Below, piece by piece: positions 20,173-58,822 of a stretch of DNA of 59,445 nucleotides (positions within the stretch are counted from its first letter, which is position 1; each line of letters starts with the position of its first letter). The DNA comes from Balamuthia mandrillaris (Eukaryota). The position numbers were made by a program, and so were the translations under genes. The stretch spans positions 124,001 through 183,445 of the forward strand of contig JAVKOQ020000091.1 of NCBI GenBank assembly GCA_031835245.2. Reading direction: 5' to 3'. The notes under the pieces are model-generated. The model did no database searches, was not told the origin of the DNA, and saw only the letters and a program-made list of their open reading frames with translations.

Positions 20173-22206
20173 CCCTATTATCTCTCGTTTACATTTCTTA
20201 AATACGAACAACAGGTATGGATAGTAGCAATGAACCCGAGACTAGAAGTGCTCTCTCTGAAAGGGTGCACTCAAGTCAGTGACGTTGGTTTGACGGCAGC
20301 TCTCGGTCGATGCAGCAACCTGAGAGAGCTCCATTTGGAGGATTTGGAGAGGCAGTTCACCGTTAGGTGTTTGTTGATGATCGGCAAACTCTGTCCGAAC
20401 CTTCACACCCTCGTTCTGCCTGGTATTCTTGAACATCCTGATGAAGTCATTCAACCTATCATTCAGTTCTGTCCAAACTTGAGGTGAAGCTTTTTCTTCT
20501 TCTCTTCTTTTCTTTAACTAGTTATTCCTTCGCTTTTGTCACCTTTCATTTTCTCTCTTGCTAACGAATTATTTATTACAGAGTCTTTAAGAGCTTCTCT
20601 CAGTTTTCAGAAATGACGATGCGTTGTCTCTCCGAGACTTGTAAACATTTGAAAAAGCTGCGACTGGGCACCACCACCAAGTCCACCATTCTCACTCAAA
20701 CCGCCGTCAAATACCTCACCAATTGTCCTAAACTTAAATCCCTTGAATGCGGCTACTTTCAGTTACCTATCTTTCATTGTTTTCCTCCTTCATTTTCTTT
20801 TTCTGTTTGTATTTTTATTTTCTATCTTTCATTGTTTTCCTCCTTCATTTTCTTTTTCTTTTTCTTCTTCTTTTCCTTTATCTTGTTCTTCTTCTTGTTC
20901 TTCTTCTTGTTGTTCTTCTTGTTCTTCTTCTTCTTCTTCTTCTTCTTCTTCTTCTTGTTCTTGTTCTTGTTCTTGTTCTTCTTCTTGTTCTTGTTCTTGT
21001 TCTTGTTCTTCTTCTTGTTCTTGTTCTTGTTCTTGTTCTTGTTCTTCTTCTTCTTGTTCTTCTTGTTCTTCTTCTTGTTCTTCTTGTTCTTCTTCTTGTT
21101 CTTGTTCTTCTTGTTCTTCTTGTTCTTCTTCTTCTTCTTCTTCTTCTTCTTGTTCTTCTTCTTCTTCTTCTTCTTCTGCCTGCTGACGTCTTTTTCTTAT
21201 AACAGATTAGGAGTGGTGAACTGGGGCAAGAAACCACTTGTCAACTTCCGCTCCTTCCGTGCCTTTGGCTGGCTCAACATGTCTCCCGAGGCTGTCCGCC
21301 AGCTACTCAAAAGCACGCCCAACCTGGAAGTCCTTCACCTCGTGCACAGCGGCGCCGGCGACATGGACATCGTAATGGACTCCTTCAAGTTCCATTACAT
21401 CAGCAGCCACTGCCCCAACCTTAGAAACATCAACCTGTGTGACTCCCCCTTCAGCGAGTCGGATGTGCAGGTGTTGGTCAAGCAATGCCCTCAGCTGAGG
21501 GAGCTGCGTGTTGGCATGAAGAGCAATCCTGGGACACGATACGAGATCACCGATTCGTGGATTTACGAGGTGATCAACTTCTCGCCGATGATTGAGGTGT
21601 TGAAAGTCTATCATGTTGACCTGAGGACGGAGACGGTCTCCCTCTTGACGAGAGGGTGCAAGCATCTGCGGGTGTTGACGTTGGGACGGTGCTCGCCGAT
21701 CACGCGCTTCACCTCCCATTTGGAGGTGTTGACCTCGTTGCGGAAGCTTTCGTTGAGGAACACGTTGACTAATGACTCGGCATTGCAGATGTTGATGGCG
21801 GCATTCCCTTCCCTTCAGACCGTTACTTTGATTGAGACAGGTACATCTTCTTTCATATTTTTATTCTCCCCCTTCTCTTCCTTCTCCTGCCGCAGTTATT
21901 GACCTTGTTCCCATGCTCTCTTTAATAGGTGTAAGTGATGCATTGATAGGATACATTCTCGGCCGTTACCGTCTTCGCTCGTTGAAGCTGCAGTCACGAG
22001 CGCGCATCACCAACGAAGGCAAGATTCTCTATCGCGGTCGTTCTTCGCGTGGTTTTGCCAAGAAGCAAACCCTCTCTGGGCAAGAGCAGGTCTTCCTCAG
22101 CCTCTTCCAAACAGAACAGGCCGCTCAGTCCATGATCAAGAAACCACCTTCCTCCTCTCCCTACTCTTCCTCCTATTCCAACCTTCCTTCGGAGTATGGA
22201 TGGTAA
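18983..22206 (+). CDS. F-box/leucine-rich-repeat protein, multi-exon
   Basis: F-box LPEEVIVHILSYLPHFPYLVRCSTVCRLWRRL followed by cysteine-containing LRRs (LEVLSLKGCTQVSDVGL, CPNLRNINL, CPQLRELRV). Confidence 0.88.
19613..19790. repeat. Perfect (GTTCTC)n hexamer microsatellite in the first intron of the F-box gene
   Basis: Roughly 29 uninterrupted copies visible. Confidence 0.9.
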
Positions 22207-22497: not shown

Positions 22498-23075
22498 CTA
22501 CACTTGAAAGTTGGAGTTGGATTCCATGCCCCCAATGTCCACGTTCTGAGGCTCCAACGGCATGTAGCTGTGGCTGTAGTCCGCGGTGCTGTCCTTGACG
22601 GCATCCATGGCGACAACGCCTCCCAGGTTTAACGGCCGATACCGCCCAACGGAGCCGTTGATGGAGGGAGAGGAGCTTCCGCGAGGGAAGTGGCTGGGGG
22701 AAGCGGCGGCGCCGCCGCGCATGAATCGTCTTGTCGCTCTCCGGTTGCGGCAGGTGAAGCAGAGGCAGCAGACCAGAAGAGGGACGAGCAGGAAGACGGC
22801 AGCGCCGACCAGAGTCCCGGAGACGATGAGCGCTATGCTCGTGTTCGTCAGAGCAGCGCCTGTTAGGAAGAGGAAGTGATAAGCAACAAGAAGGAAAGAA
22901 AGGAGAGTACGCCAACAAAACGAAGATGAAAAACATAACGGTATGAAGAAAGAAACATCAAAAGAGAACGAGAAAGAGAATAAAGAACGAGAAGAGTACA
23001 GCAAGACAAGTCATCGGTGCCACAGCTGGTATATTTCTTCAATGTCTGCAAGTAGCAAGAATGGTTTTTGTTGTT

Positions 23076-23124
<49 letters not shown>

Positions 23125-23459
23125 TTTGAATGCTTGAGAGGATGTTCTTTTTTTTTATTACGTACGGAGGAACTGTGACAAACGGATTCGGTGGCATCAC
23201 AACAGGAAGCACTGGTCTGGCACGTTACGGGGCATCGAGGGTCGTCTGGAGCCAATCCTCTGGTTTGCCTGGTAGAATAAACATATACAGGTATCAAAAA
23301 AAACAAAACTCCCAGTTGCTTTTCGCTGTTCTCCTTCCTTGTGTCCCTCCTGCTCGTAAGAAAATAGAACCCGAGACGAACGCACCCAAGAAACGACCAC
23401 CAAAGCACGGCAGAGACAAGCACAAGGCGTCGAAGAAAGAGACAGGGCCTTCCTTTCAT
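22498..23459 (-). CDS. Small single-pass membrane protein with Cys-rich ectodomain, multi-exon
   Basis: Hydrophobic N-terminus, exons LAPDDPRCPVTCQTSASCCDATESVC and TLKKYTSCGTDDLSC, TM segment IALIVSGTLVGAAVFLLVPLLVCCLCFTC, then basic residues and a cytosolic tail. Confidence 0.6.
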
Positions 23460-23550
23460 TCTTTTCTTTAAAATTTTATTTATTGTTTATTGTTTATTTG
23501 CTATAGCAGGAAGGGAGGTCACGTGGAGCCCAACTAAAGCGATAATTGAG

Positions 23551-23907
23551 TTACGTCGATGCATGGTCTTGAGGACCATGGCTGCTGTTCTGCGGCCTAC
23601 AATCGTTGATGCACGGTTGGCGATACTGCACCGGGACAAGGCGAGTTCTGTCAACAGCTTCGGCTTTGGCGATCAGCCCATCGTGTGCCACAAGAACGGT
23701 GTTTGCTCCTCCACAAAGTCTTTCACTTTGTCTTTGTTGTCCCTCAGGGACTCGGAAAACTGCGGGGGAAGCAGGTCGGCTGTGAGTCGCTCATTTCGCC
23801 CAGTGATGGTATGCACACCTGTCGTGCAATCAGTAGAGCGGCATCGTTGTCGTATTTGGTGTGGATAACATTGGGAGTCGACTCATCGAAGACCAAAACA
23901 TTGAGGG

Positions 23908-23981
<74 letters not shown>

Positions 23982-26147
23982 GGACGGAAGAGAATTATGA
24001 GACCTTGGGTTCATCAGAAAGCAAAAGTAAATGGTACTTGAGGTTAGGACATCTGACCGCATGGCGAACGGGATAAATTAGTGGTGCTTCAGAAAACTGG
24101 TTCACTGCGTTATAATAGGTAACGGCATAGTGTTCAAGGCACTCCAGTTCCTCCATTCTTTCCAGCTCTGGGGAATTGAAAGGGCAGTGAGAGGCAGCGC
24201 GGCCAGCTGGAAAAATCAGCTCTTTGAGAGAGGCCTCCGAGGTCGTTCTAGTTCTGTGAATGCTGCTTGACATGAAGTTTACAATAGTGTCGCATCTGAC
24301 CCTGAAATGCTGCCTGAGGCTGTCGATAAAGGTTCTAGGATAATCCTTATAGCCATTTGGGTCGAGGAAGACAAATGCCGGTATAGAGGGGGGGTACATG
24401 TAGACAACTGGGAGGCATCTTTCGCAAGCGCTTCTCAACACGGTGACACGAAGGGTGGAGCCCGATGTTGATTCAAAGAAGGCGCAGGTTTTTTCCTGAA
24501 GCCATGTTGGTGGTTTCCCAAGAATATCCTGGATGGATTTCACAAGGTTATGAAAGTGTTGTCTTGCTTTCTCCACGAGAATCATCGAGACTGTCGTTCC
24601 CCGAGGAATGGAACGTTTGCCAATAAGTTGCAGGGCCGTTCCATCTACACATTTGCGATTAATGTAGTACTTGCCCCATCCTGCGAATCCGTCCAAGTAC
24701 ACCACATGCTGGTTTTGTGTTTGTTAGGAAAGATCAGCAAAAACAAAAAAGAAGACGAGAGCAGAATGTACTTGGTGGTTTTCGGCGAGCATGGCGGTCC
24801 ATTGTTCGAAAAAATGACATATTAACGAGGATTTGATGATTTGTCGTGGGTATCCATTAAACGCAAAGATGGTCCCCTGGGAACTGTCCGCCTCGTCTTC
24901 GTCTTCTTCTTCTTCTTCCTCCTCCTCCTCTTCCTTCTCTGCTTCTTTGTTGTTATCTTCGACGTCTCCTTCAGTATTCACGTACTTAATTTCGAAGAGA
25001 GGCTGTGAAGAATATAGATCATCAGGGGTGGTGGATAGAGAAAAAGAAGGCAGGCTAGGGCTTTGAGTGGAGTTCGGGTTTTCATCAGGAAGCAGACTCG
25101 ACAGAAGGTGTATTTCTTGAGTTGCTGAAGCCGTCTGTGATGAGTAACAACACACACTTCTCTCATCCGACTCTCGTTCTGCTCCTGCTTCTTCCACACT
25201 GGCATACATATACTCTTTTTCTCTTTGTTCCATTTCTTCTCTCATTTCTCTACTATCTGCCTTGCTTTTGTAAAATTGCGCTTCGTTTCGCCAATATTCA
25301 GCCACTTGATCAGCCTCGTTTAACTGCCTTTTAAGCTTCTCCATCTCGTGCCTCAACTGTGTCATTGAACTTTCCAGCTCTTCGACAGCATCCTCTGCTT
25401 CGTTCGCCTTCAGTTGCAAAGCTGTTATACGCTCCGTCCTCTCGTCCTCCAGCTGGGTGATGGAACTTAGCTTTGCTCTTGTTTGGCTTAACTCTTCAAA
25501 GAGCTCCGCATTTTTCTTCGTTGCTTCCCTTATGTGCTGTTGCATCTCGAGGATCTGTAACCTGCTCGCCGTTGCAGATTCAGGGTTTTCGTCTTTCTCC
25601 TTCCCTTTCTCTTTTTCCTCTGCTCTGCTTGTATCCATTCCGTCCTTGTTGTCACGTTGTGATGAAACAAGCACAGATTCAAGTTTGCTCAAAAGGGTTT
25701 GTTCCGTCCTATGAAGCCGATGTCCCACTATGTCTTTCAATCGTTGTTCGGACAAACGTAGTTCTACTGGTTCATTTACGAACAATGCTTTTGCAGCCGA
25801 AGATCCCTCAATCTCGAGGCTTCGCTTTGGGGTTGACAGTCTTCTCCATCACCATTCGCTTGGCTGTAGTCACTCGTCGTTCGTTTTCTCTTAGTTGGGG
25901 AAGAATTGTCTTTGTCCGGGGAGTTGCACAAAAGTTGTTGGTTACCGCGCTCTTCCTGAGAACGCCTCCTCTCAGCAGCGGTTGGGCTCAGTTGATGAAG
26001 GCCAGAAGCAGCTGAAGAGAAAGTAGTAGATGTGGAGGAAGAGGCAGCGGGGGAAGCGGAAGAAGAAAAAGAGGAATTAGTTGGGGCTCGAGCTATAGAA
26101 GACGATAATACATTGTAGGCAAGAGGAATGGCATCTCCCACGGACAC
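23551..26147 (-). pseudogene. TcmP/GMT-wHTH-domain gene copy A (coiled-coil N-terminus), frameshifted
   Basis: VYLDGFAGWGKY, AFVFLDPNGY, DTIVNFMSSSIHR, YHLLLLS, VKDFVEEQTPFLW. Frameshift near 25790, an extra AC at ~23685 (TGGCACACGAT), and no recognisable acceptor/start for the penultimate exon next to an (AG)n tract. Start uncertain. Confidence 0.7.
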
Positions 26148-26234
26148 GGTAAGTTCGTTCGCTGTGCTTACCTCGCTCCGCAGAACGTCTCCTTTTTTTC
26201 ATCGTATGGTTTGCATGCATCGGGGTGTATGCGT

Positions 26235-26325
26235 CGGAGGAACTGTGGCAAACGGATTCGGTGGCATCACAACAGGAAGCACTGGTGTGGCACGTTACAG
26301 GGCATCGAGGGTCGTCAGGTGTTGA
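26235..26325 (-). pseudogene. Duplicated exon fragment of the Cys-rich membrane protein gene
   Basis: Near-identical to ~23165-23247 (ggaggaactgtg.caaacggattcggtggcatcacaacaggaagcactgg). Confidence 0.75.
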
Positions 26326-26536
26326 AGAAAGAGTTCCGTTCTTCTTTCATTCTCATCTTTGTATTTTTTTTTAAATATTTTTATTAAAAAAGGCTCCAGG
26401 TCAAACACTGCAAAAAAGGAGGTCACATGGACGAAGAAAGCTTGCCTTCCTGCTTGGCTTGCCTACCTGCTTCTCTGTTGCTCAGGTCGCTGAACTTTCG
26501 TAGAAGCAACAAAAAAACAAAAGTGAGTCATGCTGA

Positions 26537-27649
26537 TCATCCAATGAGGAGGTGGTTCTCCAGTTCTCTTTCATACCGTTCTCTTTCTTGACTATCATCT
26601 TCCACAGGAATGTCGTTCTCTTCAGTCATTGTCATTCTCTGCAATTTGCTTTCCAAGTATTCCACTTTGTCGGTTTCCTCCTCCAATCGAGATTCAAGCT
26701 CTTCTTTCTGCTGTTTAAGCTGCTTATTTTCAGTCTCAAGCTTTTTAATACGTTCCATTGCTTCGTTTGCCTGCTTTTCAAGATCTTCACTACGACGACC
26801 TGTCTTCTTAGCTAGCCTGTTCGCTTCCCGTAGCTGTTTGTTGGTCTGTCTATTCTTTTCATACAGCTTTTCATGTGCCGCTCTCTCATTTCTCAGGCGA
26901 TACTCTAAATCCTTTTTTTCTTGCCGCAGTTTGAGCACCTCTTCATTTTCTTCCTTATTACGTTGTTGGGACGCTTGCAAGACCAGCCAGTCCAGCTTCT
27001 CCACAAGCATCTTTTCCGTCCTTTGAAGCTGCCGTTTCACGATGTCTTCCGCGCGTTGTTCTGACAAGCGTAGCTGCTCAGCAGGTCCTGTAACCAACGT
27101 GTTTATGGCTTTAAGTCTCTCTTCCAAGATCTTGTTTCTAACTGAGGGCTCAGCTTTGGCTTCTTCATTATCGCCATCTTCTTCACTGAGGTCACTCGCA
27201 GTTCTCTTCCTCTTGGTCAGAGATGAATTTTTGTCGTTGTTACGGCTTGGAGAGGAGCTCTGAGGCTGGCTGCTCTCCCTTCGGCTTTGTTGTTGGCCCT
27301 CTTTGCTGGTGGTAGTGCTTTGCGTCGAAGAATGAGGTTCAAAGGCACCAGCTGAAGAAGCAGAAGAAGAGGAGGAGGAGGAGGAGGAGGAAGAAGAAGA
27401 AGAACAAGACGAATAAGAAGGAGAAGAATTACAAGAAGACGAAGGGGAAGATGACGAAGAAGAAGAACAAGAAGAACAAGAAGGCGAAGAAGGAGAATAA
27501 TCGAAACAAAAACATGAAGGCGAGGAAGGAGCAGAATTCTCCTTAATTTGTTCTCCACGCCGAAGAAAGGGCGAGGTCTTTGGTGGCGGTGAGGGAAGAA
27601 CAGCCAACGAGCGAACTGTGTGCGTTGCGGGCAGGGGAGGGGACTCCAT
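26537..27649 (-). CDS. Truncated paralog (copy B): Ser-rich plus coiled-coil N-terminus only, TcmP domain deleted
   Basis: Uninterrupted ORF highly similar to the copy C N-terminus (QQRNKEENEEV.KLRQEKKDL...MTMTEENDIPVEDD), then jumps directly into sequence homologous to the last intron of copy C. Confidence 0.6.
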   Translation of the reverse strand: MESPPLPATHTVRSLAVLPSPPPKTSPFLRRGEQIKENSAPSSPSCFCFDYSPSSPSCSSCSSSSSSSPSSSCNSSPSYSSCSSSSSSSSSSSSSSASSAGAFEPHSSTQSTTTSKEGQQQSRRESSQPQSSSPSRNNDKNSSLTKRKRTASDLSEEDGDNEEAKAEPSVRNKILEERLKAINTLVTGPAEQLRLSEQRAEDIVKRQLQRTEKMLVEKLDWLVLQASQQRNKEENEEVLKLRQEKKDLEYRLRNERAAHEKLYEKNRQTNKQLREANRLAKKTGRRSEDLEKQANEAMERIKKLETENKQLKQQKEELESRLEEETDKVEYLESKLQRMTMTEENDIPVEDDSQERERYERELENHLLIG

Positions 27650-27997
27650 TTCGACCACACCTGCTTGCAAGATTCTTTTGTGAATGAATTGGGACGATTT
27701 GCTGTGAAGAGAATGGCAAATAATTAAACGTAATTTTTAAAATCGATTTAGTCTCCCACGTGTATGCCCACCCCCTGCGGCCAAACACCCACCCACGGTC
27801 CCTTGTAGGCTATAACTTCCACGGGGTGATGGATGGCCACTATCAGGCTTTAAAACAACAATTGAAATTCTTTCTTTTGGGGATGTTGTGTTGTGTGGTG
27901 GTGATGTTTTTTCAGAGGAACCCGCCTTTGGCCATTATTCATGACGGCGCTCTCTTTTTGGCGTTTGGTGCAGACCAAAAAAAGTGATAAGCGGGAG

Positions 27998-28235
27998 AAA
28001 GGGGGTAAGCAACAAGAAGGAAGGGAGGAAAGAAAGGGTAGAGAAAGAAACGAGGATACAAATGAAACAGAGGAGGCAAAAAAAAAAAAACGATAAGAGT
28101 AGAGAAAGAAATGACAGGAACGAGAAGAGGAGAAAGAATACAGCAAGACAAGTCATCGGTGCCACAGCCGGTGTATTTCTTCAAAGTCTGCAAGCAGGCG
28201 AGAATGGTTCTTTGATGTTAGTTAAATAAGATAAT

Positions 28236-28275
<40 letters not shown>

Positions 28276-28385
28276 AATGCGGGATGTATGCGTGCGGAGA
28301 AACCGTGGCAAACGGATTTGGTGGCATCACAACAGGAAGTACTGGTGTGGCACGTTACAGGGCATTGAAGGTGATCTGGAGCCAA
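27998..28385 (-). pseudogene. Second duplicated fragment (two exons) of the Cys-rich membrane protein gene
   Basis: Matches ~22880-23255, including the TLKKYTGCGTDDLSC exon, the (AG)n intron and the CPVTCHTSTSCCDATKSVC exon. Lacks the TM exon. Confidence 0.75.
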
Positions 28386-28496
28386 GGAGAAGTCTTTCTT
28401 TTCTTTAATATTTTTTTATTTTAAAATATTAAAATAGGAAAAGCTCCAGGTCAAACACTGCAGAAAGGGAGGTCACATGGAGCCCAAAAGGTGGAA

Positions 28497-31267
28497 TTAC
28501 GTCGACATGCCCCCTTGTTGTGTCGTCACGAAGAAAGTTTGACTGTATCGCGGAGCCACCGGAGGGAGGCGAGTCCTGTCCACACGCAATGCCTCTGCGA
28601 TCAATGCATCGCTCCACAAGAATGGCGTGTGGTTCTCCACAAAACGTTTTATTTCTTCTCTGTTGTTTAGGTCACCGAACTATAGTAGAAGCAACAACAA
28701 ACAAAGTGAGTCATTCTAATCATCCAAAGATGAGGCGGTTCGTGCATACCTGTCGTACAATCAGTTCAGCGGCATCTTTGTCATGTCTCCTGTAGACAAC
28801 AGAGGCTGGCTTTGACTCCTCGTAGACGAAAACGTCGTGACGTTGATCGTAGGCGGTTATTCTACGACGTAGAATGGCTTGCTTCATGAGGATTCTTGCC
28901 TGTGCGTGTAGAGGCTAAGATGAGAGCCAAGAAGCAAAAGAAGAGCAACAAGGAGCTGTAGGAAGAAGGAGCGAAGAGAAGAGAAGAAGAGGGTGAATTG
29001 CTTACCATTGGGTCAAACGACAGTAAAAGTAAATGATATTTGATTTTGGTGCACCTGACCGCGAGTCGAACCGGATAAATCTGTTGTTCTGCAGGAAGTC
29101 GGTTCACCTCATTGAAGTAGGTTTCAACATAGTATTCAAGGCATTCCTTGTCTTCCTTTCCTACCAGCTTAGATGCATTGAAAGGGTGGTCTGTGGAATT
29201 GTAGTCCTGAGGATATACCAACGCTTTAAGAGAGGAGTCGTTCTGGCGGCGTGCCTTGCCTCTGTGAATGCTGCTTGACATAAAGTTAACAATGATGTCA
29301 CACCTCAAGGTGAAATGCTGCTTCAGGTTGTCAATAAAGGCTCTAGGATATCCCTTCCAACCGAATGGATCAAGGAAGACGAAGGCCGGATCACAGGTAT
29401 GGTGGCGGACCCGCACAACTGGGAGAATTTCCGTGCAAGACATTCGTAAAACGAAAATGTGGAGGGTTGCCTGTAGCTCATTGTTCCTCACCACAAAGCG
29501 TGCTCCTTGTTTTTCGTCCTCCCGGATAGCGGGTTGCTGAAGTAATTCCTTGATGGCTTTCACGAGGCTCTGATAGTGTTTGATCTTTTGCTCCGTAAGG
29601 TACATTGAGACAGTCATTCCCTTCAATTGACATTGGCTATACTTTCTAATGAGTTGAAGTGCGGTGCCATCCACTTCTTTGCCGTTAATCTTATACTTGC
29701 CCCACCCAGCAAATCCGTCCAAATAGAATACATGCTATTCGTAAGTTCATTGTACATAAGTAAGAGAGAAATGAAGACAAAACAAAACAGATGAAAGGTA
29801 CGTTATGGTTTTCAGCAAGCATGTTCAAAAAAGTCGTATATCAAGTCAGATTTGAGCAGTTGACGGGGATTTCCAAGTCTCCACAAGATATTCTCTTGGG
29901 AGCCTTCTTCTTCTTCGTCCTCTTCCTCTTCCTCTTCCTCTTCGTCCTCTGCTTCTTCATCATCGTCGTCAACACCCTCTTCTTCGTCTTCACCCGCCAA
30001 CTGTTCTCTTTCGAATGAAAATTGGGAAGAGTTTTGGCCGTCAGCAGTAGAGGGAAGAGAAAAAGAAGGAGTGTGGATTCCAGCTGTATCAACGGTTTCA
30101 TCAGATGATAGATACTGCATCAACTGCATTATTTCTTGAGATGGTGCGCTGAGGGTCTGGCTTGATACTTGTCTCTCCAGTTCGCTTTCATTCCATTCTC
30201 TTTCTTGTCTATCATCTTCCACAGGAATGTCGTTCTCTTCAGTCATTGTCATTCTCTGCAATTTGCTTTCCAAGTATTCCACTTTGTCTATCAATAGCGC
30301 GGTTTCCTCCTCCAATCGAGATTCAAGCTCTTCTTTCTGCTGTTTAAGCTGCTTATTTTCAGTCTCAAGCTTTTCAATACGCTCCATTGCTTCATTTGCC
30401 TGCTTTTCAAGATCTTCACTACGACGACCTGTCTTCTTAGCTAGCCTGTTCGCTTCCCGTAGCTGTTTGTTGGTCTGGCTATTTTTTTCATACAGCTTTT
30501 TGTATGCCGCTCTCTCATTTCTCAGGCGATCCCACAAGTCCTTTTTTTCTTGCCGCAGTTTGAATACCTCTTCATTTTCTTCCTTATTCCTTTGTTGGGA
30601 TACTTGAAAGACCAGCTCCAGTTTCTCCGCGATCGTCTTTTCTGTCCTTTGAAGCTGCCGTTTCACTCTGTCTTCCACGCGTCGTTCCAACAAGCGTAGC
30701 TGCTCATCATGCCCTGTAATCAGCGTTTTTATGGCTTCGAGTCTCTTTCTCTGTATCTTGTTCTCAACTTCGTCTTCGTTATCGCCATAGTCTTCACTGA
30801 AGCAACTCGCAGTTCTCTTTCTCTTGGTTGGAGAAGAATTTTTGTCGTTGTTACGGCTTGGAGAGGAGCTATGAGGCTGGCTGCTCTCCTTTCGGAATTG
30901 TTGGTCCTCTTCACGGGGTGGTGCAAAAAGAATGAGGCTCAATGGCACCAGCTGATGAAGAAGAAGAAGAAGAACAAGAAGAAGAAGAAGAAGAAGAAGA
31001 AGAAGAAGAAGAAGAAGAAGAAGAAGAAGAAGAAGCAGAAGAAGAAGCAGAAGAAGAAGAAGCAGAAGAATACCAAGAAGCAGAAGAAGCAGAAGAAGAA
31101 CAAGAAGAAGAATAATTGCAACAACAACATGGGAAAGGAGTAGAATTGTTCATTTGCGATCCACGTCGAAGAAAGGGTGAGGTCTTTGGTGGCGGTGAGG
31201 CAAGAACAGCCAACGAGCGAACCGTGTGCGTCCCTGGGACAGCCGCGGACAGGGGAGGAGGCTCCAT
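28497..31267 (-). pseudogene. TcmP/GMT-wHTH-domain gene copy C (Ser-rich/coiled-coil/acidic N-terminus), frameshifted
   Basis: YLDGFAGWGKY, AFVFLDPFGW, DIIVNFMSSSIHR, YHLLLLS, ARILMKQAI, EEIKRFVENHTPFLW. Frameshift at ~30915-30930 and an 11-nt deletion at ~29823 relative to copy A (FFEQWTAMLAENH). Confidence 0.72.
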
Positions 31268-31441
31268 TACGACCACAGATTTTTTCTGAGAAAATGAAAA
31301 ATTTTCCTTCACGTCGACACTAGCCTCATGGGGGGGGGGGGGGTCCCCTTTAGAAAAATAACAGAGTGGGATTCCTGATGCAGAGGCATATCCTTGGTGG
31401 CTGAGAAAAAACAAAAACAAAGACAAAGAATTTGAGAACAT

Positions 31442-33932
31442 TCATGGTTCATTATTTGGGGACATTGGGCTGATTGTTTTGTTCCGTGTGGTGGTGATGT
31501 CCCGCAAAGGAATACGCGCAGGCCCATCAAGGTTCACGGCGCTGCCCTGTTTCTGGCGTTTGCTGTCGAACAGGAAAACAAAAAACGGTTAGAGGACATC
31601 TGCTGGCACAAAACAAAGCAGGGAAGCCAGAAACCTGGAAACGAATCCATTCTCTTGGTCCGAAGAGGAACGTTTGTTTGAGGCAGATGAGCTGCTTCCT
31701 TCATTGCGCATTGGTTTGAATGATAACACAGACTGCTTATGGGTGGTGCAAGTGTTTTTAGCAGCTTTAAGTAACTTATTAGACCAGTTGAAAGGAGTTT
31801 GCTCGCTCACAAAGCGTTCTATTCTGGGAATATCATCCAGCTTTTGCCCAAACTAAAAAAACACAAAAAAAAAATTAAACATAGCATGACCACAGCGAGA
31901 GCAACAATATGTTTACCTCTTTCTTGATGAGGCGAGCAGCGTGCTCCGTCCGGTTGCGCTTATCTAAGTTATTGATCTCCTGCACTTCATCAAAAACAAC
32001 AACCCCATGTTCGTCGTCATACCAGCGCGCCTCTCTTAGAATGGCGGCCTTCATTGTCTGGCGAGCCTGTATGGAAAAGTTAGTAATTCTTATTAAGATA
32101 AGAAGAAAAAAGAAAGGAAAAGTGCAACTTTCTCTGAAACAGCGAGAAAAAGCAAATGGTAGATAGGCGCGTCTGGGGTTTGTCTAACAGCAAGTCGCAC
32201 AGGATACAAGTGATGAACGTCCGTGATATCATTCACTGCATTGAAATACAGCTTGCAGTACTCTTCCACACGAGTTTTGAAGTCCGAGTCCTTCACAGCA
32301 ATGAATGGATTTGGTCCGTTGGAGGAGGACGCCATCCTTTTAAAAGACAATTGTTGTTTTGCTGTCCTGCGGAATCGGTCGATTCTGCTGGACATAAAGT
32401 TCACAAGAATGTCGCACTTTTTAAAGTGGCGCCTCAGGGAGTCCATGAAGGATTTTGGATAACCACTCCAACCATAAGGGTCGAGAAATGCAAAGAGTGG
32501 AATATTGGGGTTATACCTTAACACGTGGTGGTCGCTTGCCTCACAGTTCCCCAAGATAACCTTTATGGTAAGGATGAATCCTTTGCCGAAATCCTTTTTG
32601 AATAGCAGAACAGTTCCGGATATCGCGCACGGTCTCGTTTGAAGCCTTGCACAGAGAGCTGCACTAAGCTTTTCCCAATTTTTCTGTTTTGCTTCCACTA
32701 GAACCATGCGCAGTGTAACCCCCTCGTTATACTTGTGTCGCATGGCTGCTGAGAGGACGCTGAGAGCAGCTGATTCAACCACAGTGCCATCAGGTTGGAA
32801 GTATTTGCCGGGTCCTGCAAATGGATCGTAGTACACAAGCTCCTTCATGCATAACGTTGCGAAAATGTGTGAGAGAAGAAGAAAAAGAATGCTCTGCTCT
32901 TACCTTATGCCCGCTTAGCACGTGTATGGGGAACCAGCTGTCGAAGAACCGTCGGACCACTCCGCACTTTGCTAGTTGTCTAGGTTTTGCAGGATTGTTT
33001 ATCAACTCCTTGGTTGCGTTATTTCTTTTGCCATTGTTGCTCTTTTTGTTGGGCGGTTGTTGGCGTTTGTCCGACTCTTTTTCTTTTTCCTGTGCTTCTG
33101 ATTCTCCTTCTTCTCTTGCTTCTCTTTCATTCGGTTGGGATTGTCCTTGGTTTTTGTCGTTTGTGTGATCTTCATTTATGGGTTCTTGCTCCGCTTCTTG
33201 CTCGATTACTTGGTATCTAAAGTATTTAGTTGCAACGTCTTGTTGTTGTTCTTCTTCTTCCTCTTCCTCTTCATCCGCATAATCACTATCATCTTGTTCT
33301 TCTTGTTCTTGTGCTTGTTCTTCTTCTTCTACTTCTTCTTCTTCTTCTTCTGCTTCTTCTTCTTCTTCTTCTTCTTCTTCTTCTTCTTCTTCTTCTTCTT
33401 CTTCTTCTTCTTCTTCTTGTTCTTCTTCTTCTTCTTCTTCTTCTTCTTCTTCTTCTCTTGCTTCTATTCCCAGTGCAAGTGTTTGAAATGCCTCCATCCT
33501 GCCAGATGCTGGAATGTCATCGTTGCAGCTTGTCGCTGCGACTTGATGGCCATTCCAAAAGTCACACCCAGCGGCCCACTCCGAGCGAAGCTGAATCGCC
33601 TCAGCCTTCTCTCTTAGCTGTTCGTTTTCCTCTCTCAGCATTGCTATGTTGTGCCTGAGGGAGGCTTCCACCTGCTGGCGTTCATTCTTCAGCTTCTCGT
33701 TTTCCCTCCTCAGCTGCTCGTTTTCTTCCCTCAGTTGCGCCTCAGCTTCCCGCCGCTCCTTCCTGATAGAGTGAAACAGCTTCGTTTTCTCTGCCGACCT
33801 TTTTTTGTGCCACCAGTATTTACTATACAACCTGCAAACCTTGGCGGTTATGTCCTGCAGCAGCACCTTCTTCTCCTCTTCAAAGTGCCTGCGAGTGTGT
33901 TCCCATTCGTCACCCTGGTCTTGCCTTTCCAT
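31442..33932 (-). CDS. TcmP (three-Cys-motif partner)/GMT-wHTH-domain protein copy D, apparently intact, with coiled-coil and poly-Glu N-terminus; further 5' exons may extend to ~34.3-34.5 kb
   Basis: RQLAKCGVVRRFFDSW...HK/ELVYYDPFAGPGKY...ESAALSVL...MVLVEAK...VILGNC...LFAFLDPYGWSG...DILVNFMSSRIDR...PIYHLLFLAVSEK/ARQTMKAAI.../IERFVSEQTPF. All introns are GT-AG and frame-preserving. The final short exon (stop at 31442) is inferred; the unspliced alternative stops at 31589. Confidence 0.8.
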
Positions 33933-34583: not shown

Positions 34584-35277
34584 TCAAGGAAGAGACATGG
34601 CAAACTGTAAGAAGATGCCAAAGTTGGGAGTGCCCAAGCCAGTCACGGGGTCCCATCCCTTGTAGCACGGGAAGCCAGGGCAGCAGCCGTCCGGGTTGGA
34701 GCCCTCCGTGATGTCGTGGTAGGCGGCAGGGATCTTCTTGGCGAGGGCGTAGAGCATTGGGTTCAGGTAGCCCAATGGACTCTTGTTAGCCTTGATCCTG
34801 TAACCATTGATCAAACTGAACAGACCTATTTTTGTTGTTGAAAGTAATGAGACATAAGAAAGAAGAAAGAAGAAGAAAGAAGAAAGAAGAAAGAAAAGAC
34901 AAAGGGAAAGAGATGGTACCAGAAAGAATGGGAGCACTGCAGGAAGTGCCACCAATGCTTTGAGTATAACCACCCAAAACAATTTGAACATAATCGGCTG
35001 TAGGACAAAAAAAAAACAAAGTCAACAAACTCAAGAACGAAAAATAAATAAAAGAAAGAGGGCGAACCAGGAGCAGAAATATCAGGAAGGCCACGACCAT
35101 TGCCATTGAAGTAGGAGGTAGGCAGATTGGGGGCATTCTTGAGATAGTAGGCCACGTCCGCGGCTTGCCAAGAGGGAATGGAAAAGTCAGCGGAGAAACC
35201 GCCGGAGCTGCCGTCCCATCCGACCTCATACTTCTGGCCAGAAGAGTCTGCCAATGAAGAGAAAGAAGGTTTGTTAG

Positions 35278-35320
<43 letters not shown>

Positions 35321-36743
35321 GCAGTAAGATGTAGAAGCGAGAATAAACGAAAGAAACAAGAAAGAAGACGTACTTTGTTTCACGACAGTACCACCAACCA
35401 AGGTGATCCAAGGGCTGCTGGGGTAAGGGAACTCGAACTTGGTGCAGTTGTCATTACAACCAACGCCATCGTCTCCGCTGGCTACCAAGATGCTGACTCC
35501 ACGAGCTTTGTATGTTTTATTGTTCATCAGTTTGATATCCCAACAAGAACGAGGCAGAACGAACGACAAACAAAAAGAGAAACATACCGCCAAGCTTCAT
35601 CCATTCGTTGCTGATACGCTGAACTGTGGCGTTGGGGTAGTCTCCACCGTACTCTCCGTAGGACACAGAGTGAATGAGAGGAGGCCTTGGGTCGCTGGCC
35701 AGATCGGTCACCCACCTGAGGAAGGCGTCAAAGATGTCGTCCTCCTTGTAGAGATAGTAGTAAGTGGGACAGAAGCTGCCCATAGCCATGATGTACTGAA
35801 GATCCAAAGCGGCCTCTCCCTCTCCTGTTGTTAAAGTTAGCAAGAAGAAAGAAGAGAAGCAACAAAAGAAGAAAGAAGAACAGGCAAGAAAGAAACAAAG
35901 CGTACCTGGGTCATGAGGATCGTTCTCGGCGTCACCCAGGTCCTTGACGACCTTCTGGCCAACCAAGTTGGGGGCAAAGGAGCGGAAGAACTTTTGAAGG
36001 TCGGAGGTGGAGTAGTCGTCCTGATCCTCCCACACGGCCTGCGTGTTGTTCACGCCGAGGTTGGGCGTGCCCACGGTCACGTTGTAGATCTGCCTGATCA
36101 GAGTGGGGGTGACGTTGACGTTCTTGTCCTTGCCCTTTTGGTTGCTCGCGGCCACGTTGGCGGACGGGTCACGCACGTTCTTGAGGCGCGGGAAGCCGTG
36201 CACGGGCTCGATAAAGTCGATCAAGGGGTGGACGCCCTCCTCCAGGAAGCTGGGGGTGTGGCAGCGCAGCACGGTCTTGGCGGGGGAGAGCACGTGGGAG
36301 AAGGTGCGGAACTGGCAGTTGAGGAGGCGCTCGGCCTGCTCCACCGTGGCCTTGAACCTGATGAAGCTGCGGGAGGCCATCACCTCGTAGTCGGTCACAC
36401 CATGGCGGGACAACCACGCCACCACCTGATCCACAGACTCCTGCTCCGGGGCGGTCAATTCTGTCACCTCCTTGAGGGAGAGCTGGCGGCCGTAGGCGGG
36501 GCTGTCCGGGTCGGCGATGGCCAGGGCCAGCTTCTCAAAGTACTCCAGGTTGCGCTCCTTCAGGGCGGCGTAGAGGGTCAACGGGGCGGTGCGGCCGGCA
36601 GCGGCCTCCTCCCCCCGGAGGAGCGGCTGCCAGTGTGGGGAGCTCACCGGCTGCGACTTGAGGAGAAGGCGCGGGGAAGGCGCGGCGGTCGCCGCCGCAA
36701 CAGCGAGGAGGGACAGCACCACCAGCAAGCAGGCCGTCTTCAT
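34584..36743 (-). CDS. TPP1: Tripeptidyl-peptidase I / sedolisin (peptidase S53), secreted or lysosomal
   Basis: Signal peptide, pro-kumamolisin domain (IADPDSPAYGRQLSLKEV), EAALDLQY, SVSYG, ASGDDG, GRGLPDISA, GGTSCSAP, GWDPVTGLGTPNF. Confidence 0.93.
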
Positions 36744-37141
36744 TCCGTTTCCGTTTGACTGTGAGAGAGAGGAGAGATAAGAAAAAAAATGAAGTGAAAA
36801 CTTTTCTCAAACGAAAGCAAAAAAAAGAGGGGGAAAAGAAAATGGGGAGTGAGGACCGAAAGTTGCACTTACTTTTTCTGCCCGCTGGCCGAATGGCGTC
36901 ATCTGCCCTCACCCCACCCCACCCCCCGTTGGTGGCCCCGAATCGGAGAGGAGAGGAGGCTATCGCGCGCACCGGTCACCCCCTCCTAAAAAGCAGCTTA
37001 AGGCGAAATGTGGACAGCCGAAAATTCCAAAGCTCAGTGGGTCTTTCTCTCTTCGATCTCTTCTCTCTCCTCCGCAATGTTTCTTGCTCTCTCTCTCTCT
37101 CTCTCTCATCTTTCTCTCTCCTTCGGTCTTCTCTGTGTCTT

Positions 37142-49678: not shown

Positions 49679-52600
49679 ATGGGGCAGCATCAATCGGCAC
49701 TGGGCGGAAACCCAGGAGAGAACAACCAACCGGATGGCTCCGCGGCCACCAAGACCAACCAAGACCTCTTGTGGGACATATTCAACAACAATGCTCTCCT
49801 GGAGCAGCAGATCTCCTCCAACCGCTACATCGCCTCCTCCTCCGCCGCAGCGGAAGCGGAGGACCCCTCCTCCCAATTCCGCCTGAGGCAAGATTATTTC
49901 GACGAGGACACGGAGAAGAGCTACCGGGCCAACGAGAAGTACTACCACGGCAGCACGAAATGGTGGTCCGCCCTGCTCTCGCGTCCTCTCTTCGAGGCGC
50001 AAGAAGCGCCGGCACAGACGCAAGCACAGGGCGAGAGGCAGCTCGCCAGGGAGCTGGCCCAGACCATTGCGGTCATGAGGGAGGAGACCGGAACCGCGCA
50101 GGTCCTCAAAGACTCGAGCTTTGACAAGAGGACCGGCTTTTTGATGCACTTCTACAAGGAACTTGCTGATAAAGCGGCCGATTGTTCTGAGGTTTGTTCA
50201 TTCCTTCCATCATTTGGGCTTGCTTTTTGCTATCGTTTCTCTCACCAAAACACAACAACAAACGTAGAGCACAAAAGCGTTCATTTCTATGACAGTGGCG
50301 GAGGAACGAGCGGCTGCTGCGGAAGGAAGCAAAACCCAGGGAACCATTCCGCCTGGCGTACGCCTGTCCATCCGCACCACAATGCAAATCGTGCTGGCCA
50401 TGTTAAACGACAGCACTCGCAACAACCCCTCTTTGTGTGCCCACATACTGGACATTCTTATCAACGCTTTGACGGAAGCACCAGCCCTTTGTTTGCACAA
50501 AGACGACATTCCTAGGTACCATTTTCTTATTCTATCTTTCTTTTCTGCTATCACAATTGACACAAGAGTAAAACATCGAACACGAAACAACCAAAGTACC
50601 TCTCCCTATGTTCAGGTAATATCTGACGGCGTTGCCGAAGTAAGCAAGTTCCTCGCCGTAACAGTGGGGACCTTCAAAGGCAACACCCCGGAAGAAACCC
50701 ACCTCATCAAAACAAAAGCCATAGAAGCTCTTCTTGCCCTCAACATCGCCTCTGGCTCCTTCGAAAGCTCTGTAATGCTTGTGAAGCTCTTGCTTTCTCT
50801 CCACGAAGAAGAGAATCAACAGCAAGAATCTACTTCTTCACACTTTTACTCTCTTCGATGCCCTCAATCGTTGGTATACCTCCTTCAAACGTTGGAAGAG
50901 CCAATCCTTGCTGCGCTACCCAAAGGCATTCAACATGCCGTTTCCTCTGTAACTCAACAAACAGAGCAACAACAAGTGAGACCATGGCAACTGCTTTCCT
51001 TCTTCCTCTGTCAGCTGTTCTCCGTGTGTGTTCTAGAGGAGGAGGAACGACAAGCCAAGGACAGTGCTGCGGCCCTTTCCTTGCCCTTCATCATGAATAT
51101 CAACAAAGAGAGCTTCCAAACGTTATACACTATCTCCACCTCCTGTCGTAACCTTGGCAAGCAACAAAAGCAACAGCAAGAACAAACTGACCAAAGCAGT
51201 ATCTACGACTTTGCCTTGCTGCTCATTTTCAAAATGCTTAAAGTGCATTTTCGACACTTGTCTCTGGCTCGGATACAGCCGAAGGACGTGGGCTTGGCTT
51301 GGCCCGAAACACCAAGCGGAAAGGAGGAAGAGGATAAAGAAAGCAAAGTGTTAGTGGACAAGATATCATCGCTTCTGCGTTACTACATCTTCCAGGCACA
51401 AGGAGAGAGCGAGACAGAGCAGCAGATCCAATTGGAGGCCTGCCAAACTCTTGCCTACGCTCTGGACTACGTCGTTCCCAATCAGAGCGAGCAGCTGAAT
51501 CTCCTCGTGAACGCCCTCCAGGAAGTAAATGCCAAACAAGAGGAGAAGAAAGCTACTGCTTCTGCTTCTGCTTCTGCTTCTCTTCCCGTCGGTGATACGA
51601 CATCCTCTTCTTCTTCCTATAGCGGTGCCTACTTTTTGGAGAAAATGTTGGCGCAACTTTCGGATGCTGCAGCAGTCAACCGGCTCTTCAAGCCGAGTGA
51701 AACAAAGAACAAGACCGAGCAAGCCGAAAAGAAGAAAGAGAAAGACGAAGATAACGTGCAGACGATTCTTCCTCTGATCTTCTCCTATTCTAAACATCAG
51801 TTGGAGCGATCGTTGGAGCGACAGCTGTCGTCTCCGTCATCAAAGAAAGAAGGCGAAGAGGCTAGGCCTGGTTACGTTCGTTTCTTACTTACTTTGCAGA
51901 ACTACATCTTTGCTTCTTTGGCCGAGCAACAACCACAACAAAGCAAAACCGAAGCAGGAGAAGAGAAAGAAATAGAGTCAGAAGAGCAAAAAGCAAAACT
52001 AGAGCAACGCAAACAACAACAGTACTATCTCCGCCAATACTATACACTTCAAGCCATGAATCACTTCCAAGAACAACTCGAGAGCGTTCGCTCCGTTGTG
52101 TCCCACCACAACGCACAAAGTGGAAAAGAAGCTACTGCCGGACTAGGAGCACAAAAGACTGAGCAGCTGCTTCGCTTCCTTACCCGCTCTTCCACCTTTG
52201 CTTTATTGCCAGCCTTGGCATCCTCTTTTATGTTGGACCTCTCTCACTCTTCTGCTTCGTCATCCTCTTCTTATCCCGATCTCACGCGTGAGCTTATGAC
52301 GAAGGTGCTCGCTTTCTTGCGGAACGTGGAGAGTTTGCAGTCAGAGCTCGCTGTTGGCTCGGCTAGTGGCGCTTCTGCGTCGGCATCCTCCTACGGACTT
52401 ACTATAGTGGAGACGCTTCATTCCTATGCGAACAACATGGACATTTGCAAGCATGTGGCAATATCGGATGCTAGCGGTCTCACTCTCGAGTTTGACGAGA
52501 ACAGCCGCACAGAAGAAACGTACGTTTCGGCGTTTTCTTTTCTTTTCTATTCTTTTTTGTTTTTTTTTTTAAAGAAGAGAAAAAAAGTCTTATAGCTACT

Positions 52601-55600
52601 CTGAAACTACAAAACAAACAAAAAGGCACGACTGGCTAAAGCTATTCTTGGCTCCCAACAACTGCAACCAATTCCAAGAGCAACTGACCGGTGGCACCCA
52701 CAAATGGCCCAAGCACCCCCTCCACGTCCCCTCCAACGCCGTTTGGTTCATGTTCCACTCGGACGCCTCCAACGTGGACTGGGGCTTCCGCTGCAAGGTC
52801 AAGTACACCATCAAGAACCGCTTCTGGCTGCCGGAGATGGAGAGGACCCTGCTCTGGATTGTCGTCAAGATCGCCATGAAGATGATGGGTTCCTACACTG
52901 ACAAGGAGCTGCGTTACCTTCCCTGGCTCAACTCCAACCTTCTCAAAGCTGGTATGTCTCAGCAAAGCATCTATGAGGAAGAGAGCAAAGGCAAAGCCGT
53001 TTCCTCAACAACAGAAGAAGAGACGGAGTTCTTGAGAGACCTCATAGAGTTGCGTGGGGACGCTGGTCGCATGCACAAGAAGTTCATCCCCTCCCACCTC
53101 TCCTCATCAGCCTCGCAACTTGCGGGCATCACCTCCAAGTCCGTGGACCGCGCGGTCAGGGTGGTGGTGGCTGCCATCCTGCATCACGCTCATCTCACTC
53201 CCGATGCCATCAAGTTTGCTAACGAGGGCTCCTCTTCCAATCCCTCACCAGCTTTGAAGAGGGCCTATCGCTACGGCTACAAGGTGAAGAAGTGGTTCAT
53301 TCAGCAGCGTCAAAAGGAGGCCAACCAAGGCTCGGAGAGCGACAGTCGCAGCGTGTATGACCGTCTCGCAGAGAAGGTCTCGCAGAAGGCGGAGTGTTTG
53401 CTTCGCTTTACTCCCGTGCTTTCTCGCGAGCAACACTTGGAGAAGACTGGTGCCCTGAAGAGTCAACAGCAACAACGTTCTGTCTCTTTGCGTCGCAGCG
53501 TGGACAGATTGATCGTTCAGGCCGGTGGACAAGTCCCTTCTACGGTAGCTTCAATAGACGACGACAGCAATGACGACGTGTCGTCTGTCTTGGGAGGAGG
53601 TTCTCTTCTGGCCTTGGCAGAAGGCCCAGGAGCTCCTTCTTGGTACTGGGAGCCAGCTGCTCATGCCATTCTTTCCTTTGTGCAGTCGGAGGAGGTCAAC
53701 GCGGAGGACGTGGAGGAGTGCGTGCGGCTGAGGAAGCAAAGGGCCAACGACAGGGCAGAGTGCCTTGCCCTGTTCGCTGACATTGTGACGTCGTTGAAGA
53801 GCTGCTCCTCGCCGGCTCTCTTGCAGGAAGTCATGGCTCTTGTTGGATGGGCCTTGAAGAGCTATGCTCCTCTGAACGATGGAGGTGGCAAGAAGGAGCA
53901 GAGGGACAAGAACCTGGAGAAGGTGTTGAAAGCAAGGACGAAGGGACTTCATCACTACAGCCACGACCTTCAATGCGCCGGAGCGGAGCTGCAGCAAAAA
54001 GTTTCGGACGCGTTCTATCCTCTCTACAAGACTCTACTCTCTCTGCTCGATTCCAGAGCGACCGACGCATCTACTTCCGTGATGCAGGCTTCCGCTTTTG
54101 TATGTGACTGCCTTGCTCTTAAGTTCCACACAGAGAACGACTTTGAGTTCCTTCTCGAGAGCGATATCTTCCAGAAGATTTTGCCACTCGTTCTTGAAGT
54201 GCCATCTGCTTCTACTGCTTCTTCTTCTCTAGCCTCTTCTTCGTCTTCTCCTTCTTCTTCTGACACCGATAAAGGAAAAGAAAAACAAGAACCTGCACAA
54301 GAACAGCAACGAGAAGGAGAGTCTTCTTCATCCTCTGAAGAACAACAAAAGCCTAAACTCAAAGCAAGAAGAATCATCATCGCCAGCAAAGATGACATGG
54401 AGTCAGGAGGACAACAGGAAGGCTGGATAGACGTGGAGGACGAGGAGGACATTCGCTTCCTTATGGGCGGGACCGACGACACAGAAAGCAAAGCCAAGCA
54501 AGAGCGCTTCATAGCTCTCTACAAGAAGCGACAAGCCGCTTGGCTCTTGTTGCAAACTATTGCTTTGCAATGCATCCACCCGTCTTCCAAAGCTAACAGC
54601 AACAAGTCGGGAACAACGACGACCCATCTCTATCCTGCTCAGCTCAAGTTGACACAACAGTTGTTGGATCTTCTTCACGAGCACTTGAACAACTCTTGGA
54701 AGGAGAACACCACTTTGTTTACTGGTGAGAATGGCCCTCGTCGTGTCTCCTTCTTTGGCAAGGGTCTTGGCAAGCGACCCAAACAAACAAAGCTCTTCCG
54801 CCTCAGCGAGGACTGGTCAAAAGACATTGACCAAACAGCTCTCTCTCCAGCGGACATTGGTCTCCTTTTGTTCTCTCTGGCCTCTGCTTCGGCCGTTGTT
54901 CGAGCGGAGCTCTGCACTCCCAAATGGATGTGCCTGTTGATGACTTTCCTCAAAGAGGAAAACGAGGAAGTACCGCCTTTGTTGGTTCCTGAGGAAGCAA
55001 AGGAAGCGGAGAAGGCCAAGGAGAAAGAGAAGGAGGAAGAACAGGAAACAGAGGAAAAGAAAGAGGAAAAGAAGAGGAAACGGGAGATAAGGAGATTGTT
55101 GAAGATATACAACGGAACCAAATCTTTCATGAAGGTGTTAGTCACCCATTTGTTCTCCATCACTTTGCCACAGGTGGATCCCAACAACATCAACAACAAC
55201 GCCAACAACGAATGCAACCAACTGGCAAAGCAAATAGCGGACGAGCTTCTCTCTGGCATCGGTCAAGGCTTAGGTGTGGCGTCTTTCCTCAGCATTGCTG
55301 TTGCCAAGCCAGCTCAGGAAGGAGAGGACGAAGAAGCAGCGCTAGAGAAGGAGTTACAGCATGTCAACCGATTGCCTGCTCTCTCCACGGCTGCCTCCAA
55401 TATGCTCCAAGCGCTGCAACGCTTGTTGAAGAGCTCAGAGCATTGGAAGACCTATATCACTACGTGGGTCATGCAACGTCTGCAAAGCGCCTTGCCAAAG
55501 GTTCTTCCAGCTTTGTTGCTCTCTGGTGAACCACAACAGCAAGCACAGCTCTCGGCACTCATCCAAGAGTCCGTGACTGCTCTTTCCTTGATGGGCAAAC

Positions 55601-58600: not shown

Positions 58601-58790
58601 TGGTTACTGCTGCTGCAACGAAGACCAACGAGAAAGAAAAAGAAAAAGAAGGAGAGGAGGGAGCACAAGCAACGGTTGAGCCGGATCTCAGCCAGACGCA
58701 GGATGGTTGGACGGTTTGTGGTTGGTTCTCGCTCCCGCTTTGTGAGACGACCGGCAAGAATACTTTGATCCAGTTTGACAACGGAGGTCA

Positions 58791-58822
<32 letters not shown>

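Follow-up and report, generated by a model that had tools for sequence, protein, structure and literature searches.

The amoeba Balamuthia mandrillaris carries a tandem array of TcmP genes in a stretch of 59,445 nucleotides (the window; GenBank assembly GCA_031835245.2, contig JAVKOQ020000091.1, positions 124,001 to 183,445), in which coordinates are counted from the first letter. The copies, here called A to D, are true TcmP genes that are eukaryotic and spliced and have no neighboring partner gene, and copy D is the sole intact gene among the four. The reading we favor, which we hold with about even confidence when taken as a whole, is that these genes form a settled eukaryotic tandem family of likely prokaryotic ancestry, and that D is a predicted S-adenosylmethionine (SAM)-binding protein which likely methylates a base amine without a radical-SAM neighbor.

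Membership in the TcmP family had been proposed from the sequence alone (the sequence-only reading), and profile searches agree with that assignment. The exon-2 frames of D, C, and A scored 83.5, 60.3, and 65.1 bits, respectively, against the NCBIfam TcmP model TIGR04474, all above its curated cutoff of 53 bits; no other model in NCBIfam matched these frames, and a Pfam scan of them gave nothing above cutoff. The TIGR04474 cutoff was also passed by 10 of 12 further proteins, and P0005 (NCBI model QOT17_000938), a paralog on another contig, scored 88.6 bits. An ordinary eukaryotic methyltransferase was rejected as an identity for these genes, since Pfam methyltransferase matches were zero while TIGR04474 was passed. 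The motifs D(G/P)FAGxGKY, L(V/T)E, F(V/A)FLDP(F/Y/N)G, DxxVNFMSSxIxR, YHLL, and TPF occur in this order in A, C, and D, as had been listed, except that the first helix reads K-x2-hh-x2-FF and not K-x3; a six-frame scan of the window found TcmP motifs nowhere beyond these three minus-strand copies. Motif IV is DPYG in D, DPFG in C, and DPNG in A. D and P0005 retain the lysine (K), DxFxGxGxY, the strand-2 glutamate, DPxG, M..R, Y, and MK. The MKxAI helix, which the sequence-only reading had reported in C and D, was lost in A to a (TC)n tract.

Copy D encodes 718 amino acids in four exons with no internal stop codons and three GT..AG introns. The predicted protein consists of a coiled coil, an acidic tract, the TcmP domain (from about residue 312), and a three-helix helix-turn-helix (HTH) domain. 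When spliced, it matched a profile of 103 long prokaryote-like TcmP proteins with 130 bits over positions 10 to 338 of 363. Eight of the nine introns expected in A, C, and D are GT..AG introns in phase 0, 59 to 106 nucleotides long and at equivalent positions; of the three shared phase-0 introns claimed earlier, the only one that did not hold up is intron 2 of A, which is without an acceptor. The equivalence of the positions across copies bears out the proposal that the introns are older than the duplications. Bacterial contamination was rejected because the genes contain introns, the exon G+C content (0.46 to 0.48) is comparable to that of the window, and the genes flanking the array are of ordinary eukaryotic types. 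Contigs from sequencing run X9 over the coding part of D showed 21 differences, none of which creates a stop codon.

The complete domain was modeled on P0005, which is about 60 to 61% identical to D and has the whole domain, rather than on D. AlphaFold with 146 aligned rows returned a predicted local distance difference test score (pLDDT) of 90.7 and a predicted template modeling score of 0.91; the model of copy C (pLDDT 81.7) has three helices and a disordered tail. A Foldseek search with the P0005 model returned class I SAM-dependent methyltransferases, and the SAM-dependent Rossmann fold recognized by the sequence-only reading is thereby supported as a prediction on this paralog. In a VIA-align search of 48,161 chains, the best match was Trm1 (Z 15.2, 238 aligned residues, root-mean-square deviation [rmsd] 6.0; a second Trm1 had Z 14.6), tied with RlmJ (Z 14.8, 217 aligned residues, rmsd 3.8; an RlmJ homolog had Z 14.3), and leucine carboxyl methyltransferase came next (Z 13.8). 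Both leading matches reach into the C-terminal domain, extending over residues 2 to 331 (Trm1) and 6 to 343 (RlmJ) of the model. DPFG follows strand 4 in all five archaeal Trm1 proteins compared and DPSY in both RlmJ proteins; among 126 prokaryote-like TcmP rows, the residues of motif IV are D in 100%, P in 100%, F in 96%, and G in 100%. RlmJ was also the only methyltransferase in a PDB sequence search (E 1.3 to 2.1), and a search of the same database with a profile of the three copies gave no matches. Neither PF02005 (Trm1) nor PF04378 (RlmJ) had any Pfam match among the family proteins scanned.

The C-terminal domain of D matched its profile over positions 4 to 44 of 72, covering three helices, and none of 500 shuffled sequences scored as high. 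The C-terminal winged HTH (wHTH) proposed earlier appears to keep its three helices, whereas its wing is recognizable neither in this profile match nor in the model of copy C. The corresponding Pfam family, PF22560 (GMT-wHTH, in which GMT may stand for guanine methyltransferase), had no match on P0001, P0004, or P0005, the first two being the NCBI models of copies C and A.

From the structural matches to Trm1 and RlmJ, the DPFG motif, and the invariant lysine, we infer an amine-methylation mechanism. SAM would be held by DxFxGxG and the strand-2 glutamate, and the methyl group would be passed to an exocyclic amine. Trm1 catalysis uses the aspartate of DPFG, and the most likely target predicted for D from the models is guanine N2, as in Trm1, with adenine N6 as the alternative. 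The aspartate of DP(Y/F)G and the invariant N-terminal lysine may activate the amine in the manner of D164 and K18 of RlmJ; the accessible part of PMC3814359 gives the N-terminal Lys18 and motif-IV Asp164 of that enzyme as essential. The HTH domain could grip nucleic acid, and the added coiled coil, with its KRKR-like patches, may serve in oligomerization or nuclear import. A conflict-related role, in which self or invading nucleic acid is tagged, would account for both the patchy spread of the family and the fast turnover of its copies. The intact protein is possibly a borrowed anti-virus tool.

The sequence-only reading had assumed three working paralogs. One of the four copies in the window is intact, and the fourth, copy B, had been overlooked. 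Copy C has two lesions: translation from the counterpart of B's start codon runs into a stop at 30911, and because of an 11-nucleotide deletion near 29820 the first helix, with its lysine, is out of frame with the rest. Its open part is identical in every letter to the NCBI B. mandrillaris model QOT17_010556, the junctions of which for introns 2 and 3 are those predicted in C. In copy A, the (TC)n tract replaces the 5' part of exon 3, where the acceptor was lost along with the MKxAI helix, and a frameshift follows TPFLW; exon 2 is intact. In copy B, the N-terminal part is 80% identical to the N terminus of C, and an internal deletion fuses it to an old intron-3/exon-4 remnant (repeats D6, D11, D19, and D20). 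DNA contigs from run X1 showed no differences from the window across the break in C (28874 to 29900) and exon 4 of A (23187 to 23901). Because of this match, the breaks are probably real and assembly error is unlikely to lie behind them, with the caveat that X1 may be the assembly's own source.

Coordinates of the TcmP copies and other features in the window (positions count from the first letter of the window).
Feature	Position	Strand	Content
Copy D	31589..33932	-	Exons 33932-32904, 32842-32129, 32066-31917, 31852-31589
Copy D exon 2	32129..32842	-	Rossmann core: strand 1 (DPFAGPGKY), acidic strand 2, DPYG, NFMSS, YHLL
Copy C	28497..31267	-	Broken; exons still open 29734-29006, 28899-28750, 28679-28497; NCBI model QOT17_010556 = P0001
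Copy B	about 26482-27649	-	C-like N-terminal Ser-rich and coiled-coil part; no TcmP domain; about 361 amino acids
Copy A	23551..26202	-	3' end broken; exon 2 at 24708-24004; NCBI model QOT17_010554 = P0004
Duplicated flanks	22992..28481	-	Repeat families D7, D14, D16, and D17; 75 to 93% identity
Small membrane-protein gene	about 22500-23460	-	Partial copies at 26231-26431 and 27950-28481
Sedolisin-type peptidase gene	34829-36806	-	Upstream of copy D
Ankyrin-repeat gene	4120-5703	+	Single exon, 528 codons
Very long gene	50268-59445	+	Multiple exons

Copies A, B, and C are each followed downstream by pieces of a neighboring gene for a small membrane protein, and the array therefore arose through tandem segmental duplication. 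The small gene itself has a predicted signal peptide, a Cys-rich part, and one membrane helix and is spliced in run X11; its last exon frame has no Pfam match, its 5' exons were coduplicated with the TcmP copies, and one of its partial copies is spliced in X11 and X4. Depth of X1 was about 90 over an F-box gene (21260 to 22200) and about 35 to 60, with loose ends, over most of the TcmP array (23187 to 30880), so the array may perhaps differ between haplotypes. A second cluster of the family lies on another contig and contains P0005 and P0007 (QOT17_000941), a broken fragment that is 69% identical to copy C. At the C-terminal end of P0005, the KTRVEEYC..YPVRLAVR segment occurs in part a second time, which suggests another partial duplication at this cluster. 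The ratio of nonsynonymous to synonymous substitution (dN/dS) in exon 2 was 0.27 for D and A and 0.29 for C and A, and the D-C comparison was saturated; these values point to past purifying selection, and most copies have since decayed recently. The family is in birth-and-death evolution, with both duplication and decay.

Splicing was followed in contigs of runs X4 and X11, which are not annotated as RNA and were taken as RNA by inference because their contigs skip GT..AG introns in several genes. Copies A and B and an off-window paralog are spliced in these runs. X4 contigs cover 24002 to 24639 of copy A with no differences, and a joint at 24002/23816 bypasses the exon-3 remnant, so that the protein would end 24 residues past strand 7. 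In copy B, an intron at 26576 to 26495 is spliced out (joint 26494/26577 in X4), with a new donor joined to the old intron-3 acceptor; the resulting coiled-coil-only product could act as a regulator or decoy. One X4 contig, from which introns 2 and 3 have been spliced out where predicted, is from P0007. Expression of copy C was rejected as a source for this C-like contig, since all seven amino acid differences and both small deletions fit P0007. Copy D is covered by two contigs in X11, of 235 and 320 nucleotides, with no differences at a depth of 6 to 9. The raw RNA runs X14 and X15, of which only 3 to 5% each was searched, gave two diverged reads and none on D, respectively, and the X14 sample was sparse, with 21 reads in all on 9.6 kb.

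The wider distribution of the family was surveyed with HMMER against 1.84 billion representatives, which returned 506 matches at E 0.001 and 3 at 1e-30, all three from Balamuthia; the best 150 of the 506 made up the homolog survey. Nearly all homologs among the matches listed resemble prokaryotic long TcmP, in line with the prokaryotic ancestry claimed earlier, and on these sequences the TcmP family is likely prokaryotic in ancestry. Named eukaryotic homologs come from the crinoid Anneissia japonica, the fungus Jimgerdemannia flammicorona, and the mussels Sinanodonta woodiana, Mytilus galloprovincialis, and M. edulis. In UniRef, the proteins from the fungus and the mussels already bear the name TcmP, and further eukaryote-like homologs occur among ENA, Logan, and JGI records. 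In view of the named crinoid, mussel, and fungal proteins, the earlier idea of a domestication particular to an amoeba is not supported. Two of the ENA records, P0164 and P0165, represent clusters of 119 and 85 members with animal-like, apparently single-exon TcmP on short contigs. The Logan record P0026 has a TcmP-like N-terminal part, which falls near the amoeba copies in the mixture-model tree described below and elsewhere in the FastTree tree, and a later stretch that we take to resemble a Hint domain; it may be a misjoined gene model.

The best non-Balamuthia match among the best 150 of 506, P0006, is 28% identical to D and has GTA in place of GSP. Its protein has Q right before exon 2, V right after it, and V after LIxxx, and it carries a 20-residue insert at intron 2 that ends in Q before the MK helix. 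V or Q thus falls exactly at four intron boundaries, and the rough chance of this pattern is 5e-6 to 7e-5. P0006 therefore reads like an unspliced gene that seems to keep all three introns, and by these traces the spliced gene would predate this genus. The DNA context of P0006 and of a second protein, P0016, was searched for and not found.

One old eukaryotic origin is slightly favored by the sequences over separate ones. In an IQ-TREE mixture-model tree (58 rows and 357 columns, with rows shorter than about 290 residues and near-duplicates left out), 21 eukaryote-like rows, 8 of them from named eukaryotes, formed one clade with support of 96/93, within which Balamuthia and P0006 grouped at 99/91. 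Of the 38 rows regarded as prokaryotic, most of which were classed by likeness, 37 fall outside this clade; the exception, P0016, is eukaryote-like in sequence. The amoeba lineage may instead have acquired TcmP from a prokaryote by an uptake of its own, independent of that in animals and fungi, a possibility that concerns the origin only and to which we give a little less than an even chance. In a FastTree tree of 309 rows with named prokaryotes, 30 eukaryote-like rows fell into three groups, and an approximately unbiased (AU) test did not reject a tree that grouped the amoeba rows with three prokaryote-like ones (p = 0.128). The identity of D to the fungal and crinoid proteins (24 to 25%) is no higher than to a prokaryote-like one (25%), and the amoeba clade carries motif changes of its own. 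However, separate uptake does not fit the single mixture-model clade, and no close donor, whether prokaryotic or viral, emerged from the homolog and virus searches. These trees contain several long branches. In IMG/VR, 0 of 154 pattern matches were related to the amoeba alignment, a weak negative since the search was limited by the pattern; under the same limit, three prokaryote-type loci were found with the eukaryote alignment, and the only GenBank phages found were Gordonia phages, at 22 to 32% identity.

Several results weigh against the favored reading of D as a working base methyltransferase of a settled family, in addition to the FastTree groups and the AU test. Protein and small-molecule methyltransferases lie within 1 to 2 Z units of the top structural matches, the hhalign probabilities of 3.5% for Trm1 and 28.5% for RlmJ are weak links, and the wHTH has no recognizable wing. 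The amoeba copies have changed the first-helix His to Arg and GSP to SAA or GTA, positions at which prokaryote-like rows have His in 93% and GSP in 99 to 100%, along with two more near-invariant residues (E to D and G to A). P0007 is broken, as are three of the four window copies; the best-covered copy, at a depth of 15 to 25 in X11 and X4, is B, which has no enzyme domain, and no splice junction of D was seen in X11, where only the two short contigs cover it. The literature searched held no activity data for any TcmP. Finally, among 83 TcmP loci of prokaryotes and viruses, 67 have one neighbor family within 2.5 to 5 kb, and all three of its members that were scanned are DUF5131; from this frequency, TcmP may not work alone. 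A second neighbor family, present in 6 of the 83 loci, is SPL-like radical-SAM on both members scanned.

The target of D could instead of guanine N2 be adenine N6 or cytosine N4, the amines methylated by RlmJ and DNA amino-methyltransferases. In favor of this are the structural tie of RlmJ with Trm1 at a lower rmsd, the sole place of RlmJ among methyltransferases in the PDB sequence search, and the fit of the N-terminal lysine and motif-IV aspartate to RlmJ. However, motif IV has the Trm1 form, DP(F/Y)G, rather than DPPY or DPSY, and the Trm1 match extends into the C-terminal domain, as does that of RlmJ; we regard this change of target as unlikely. About as improbable is that D is a decaying relic, the last unbroken copy, which has no current catalytic role while the coiled-coil product of B is kept. 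The broken copies, the coverage of B, the bare presence of D in RNA-like data, and the several altered conserved residues all speak for decay, but D and P0005, which are on different contigs and 60% identical, have lost none of the invariant core residues, dN/dS is about 0.3, none of the 21 X9 differences in D makes a stop, and the spliced gene seems to have persisted since the split from the organism of P0006. It is less probable still that D binds SAM and nucleic acid as half of a two-part system and needs a radical-SAM partner (DUF5131 or SPL-like) encoded elsewhere in the genome. The neighbor families of prokaryotic TcmP genes would lead one to expect such a partner; however, a six-frame search of the window with a profile of the 67 neighbors found no DUF5131 (best E 0.54), as the sequence-only reading had noted, and no DUF5131 was fused to any TcmP protein retrieved.

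We continue to favor a settled eukaryotic TcmP family with D as a likely base-amine methyltransferase. A bolder form of this reading, unlikely in its entirety, is that the family is an overlooked eukaryotic group of Trm1-like guanine-N2 methyltransferases, derived from a single uptake of a prokaryotic defense module before the split of amoebae and opisthokonts, which acts without a partner to place a base mark against viruses or mobile elements. If this were true, the group would have persisted in scattered amoebae, fungi, molluscs, and echinoderms, and the mark it writes, on DNA or RNA, would be an unrecognized one. The TcmP family is widespread, and its partnerless eukaryotic copies allow solo action and the target base to be asked about directly; the Trm1-like DPFG motif points specifically to guanine N2 as a first guess. 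Were D to act on DNA or on viral RNA, it would be a new writer among the few methyltransferases that eukaryotes have recruited from bacteria, and the spread to mussels, a crinoid, and a fungus makes the family more than an oddity of a single amoeba. Even an inactive D is a clear example of a gene that was transferred long ago and then gained introns and underwent birth-and-death turnover. Full-text searches, which covered few subscription papers, turned up no study of TcmP function or of eukaryotic TcmP. In the accessible portions of PMC12445080 and PMC12429752, TcmP figures solely in a table, and it is not mentioned in the keyword passages of the Balamuthia papers PMC10471605 and PMC8569187, supplements aside; the parts available of PMC10853773 and PMC6313347 hold nothing on GMT-wHTH or DPFG.

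Elsewhere in the window, the sedolisin-type peptidase gene upstream of copy D has a pro-kumamolisin domain (Pfam) and a G+C content of 0.66. The ankyrin-repeat gene, which has Pfam ankyrin matches, contains WCxW-type repeats that we take to be reminiscent of giant-virus ankyrin proteins, and the very long gene includes three large open frames without a Pfam match.

Compared with known systems, the Balamuthia copies are closest to the long form of TcmP with GMT-wHTH (PF22560), with which they share the core residues and the order of domains up to the third HTH helix. They differ from prokaryotic TcmP in having three introns and an N-terminal coiled-coil and low-complexity extension of 300 to 430 residues, in having neither a recognizable wing nor an adjacent DUF5131 gene, and in being mostly broken in tandem. 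The best PADLOC model was PDC-M30A, which the exon-2 pieces matched at E 2e-8 to 1e-5 and P0005 at 5e-14. The PADLOC systems PDC-M30 and PDC-M41 combine TcmP with DUF5131, and the likeness is to the TcmP half, the second component being absent from the window; the main text of the source (10.1101/2024.01.29.577857), as far as available, presents the PDC set as predicted candidates and does not name M30 or M41, and DUF5131 figures as a radical-SAM cluster in the accessible part of PMC9477430. Other eukaryotic TcmP homologs score above the TIGR04474 cutoff and fall into one clade with the amoeba copies in the mixture-model tree, but the fungal, mussel, and crinoid proteins keep the His, GSP, and a full wHTH match and are without the long coiled-coil N terminus. 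Trm1 shares the top structural match and DPFG with the family and differs from it by a sequence identity of 8 to 9%, an rmsd of about 6, and the lack of a PF02005 match. RlmJ differs by its DPPY or DPSY motif, against DP(F/Y)G in TcmP, and by the lack of a PF04378 match, and it shares the structural match together with an N-terminal lysine and a motif-IV aspartate that appear to occupy like positions.

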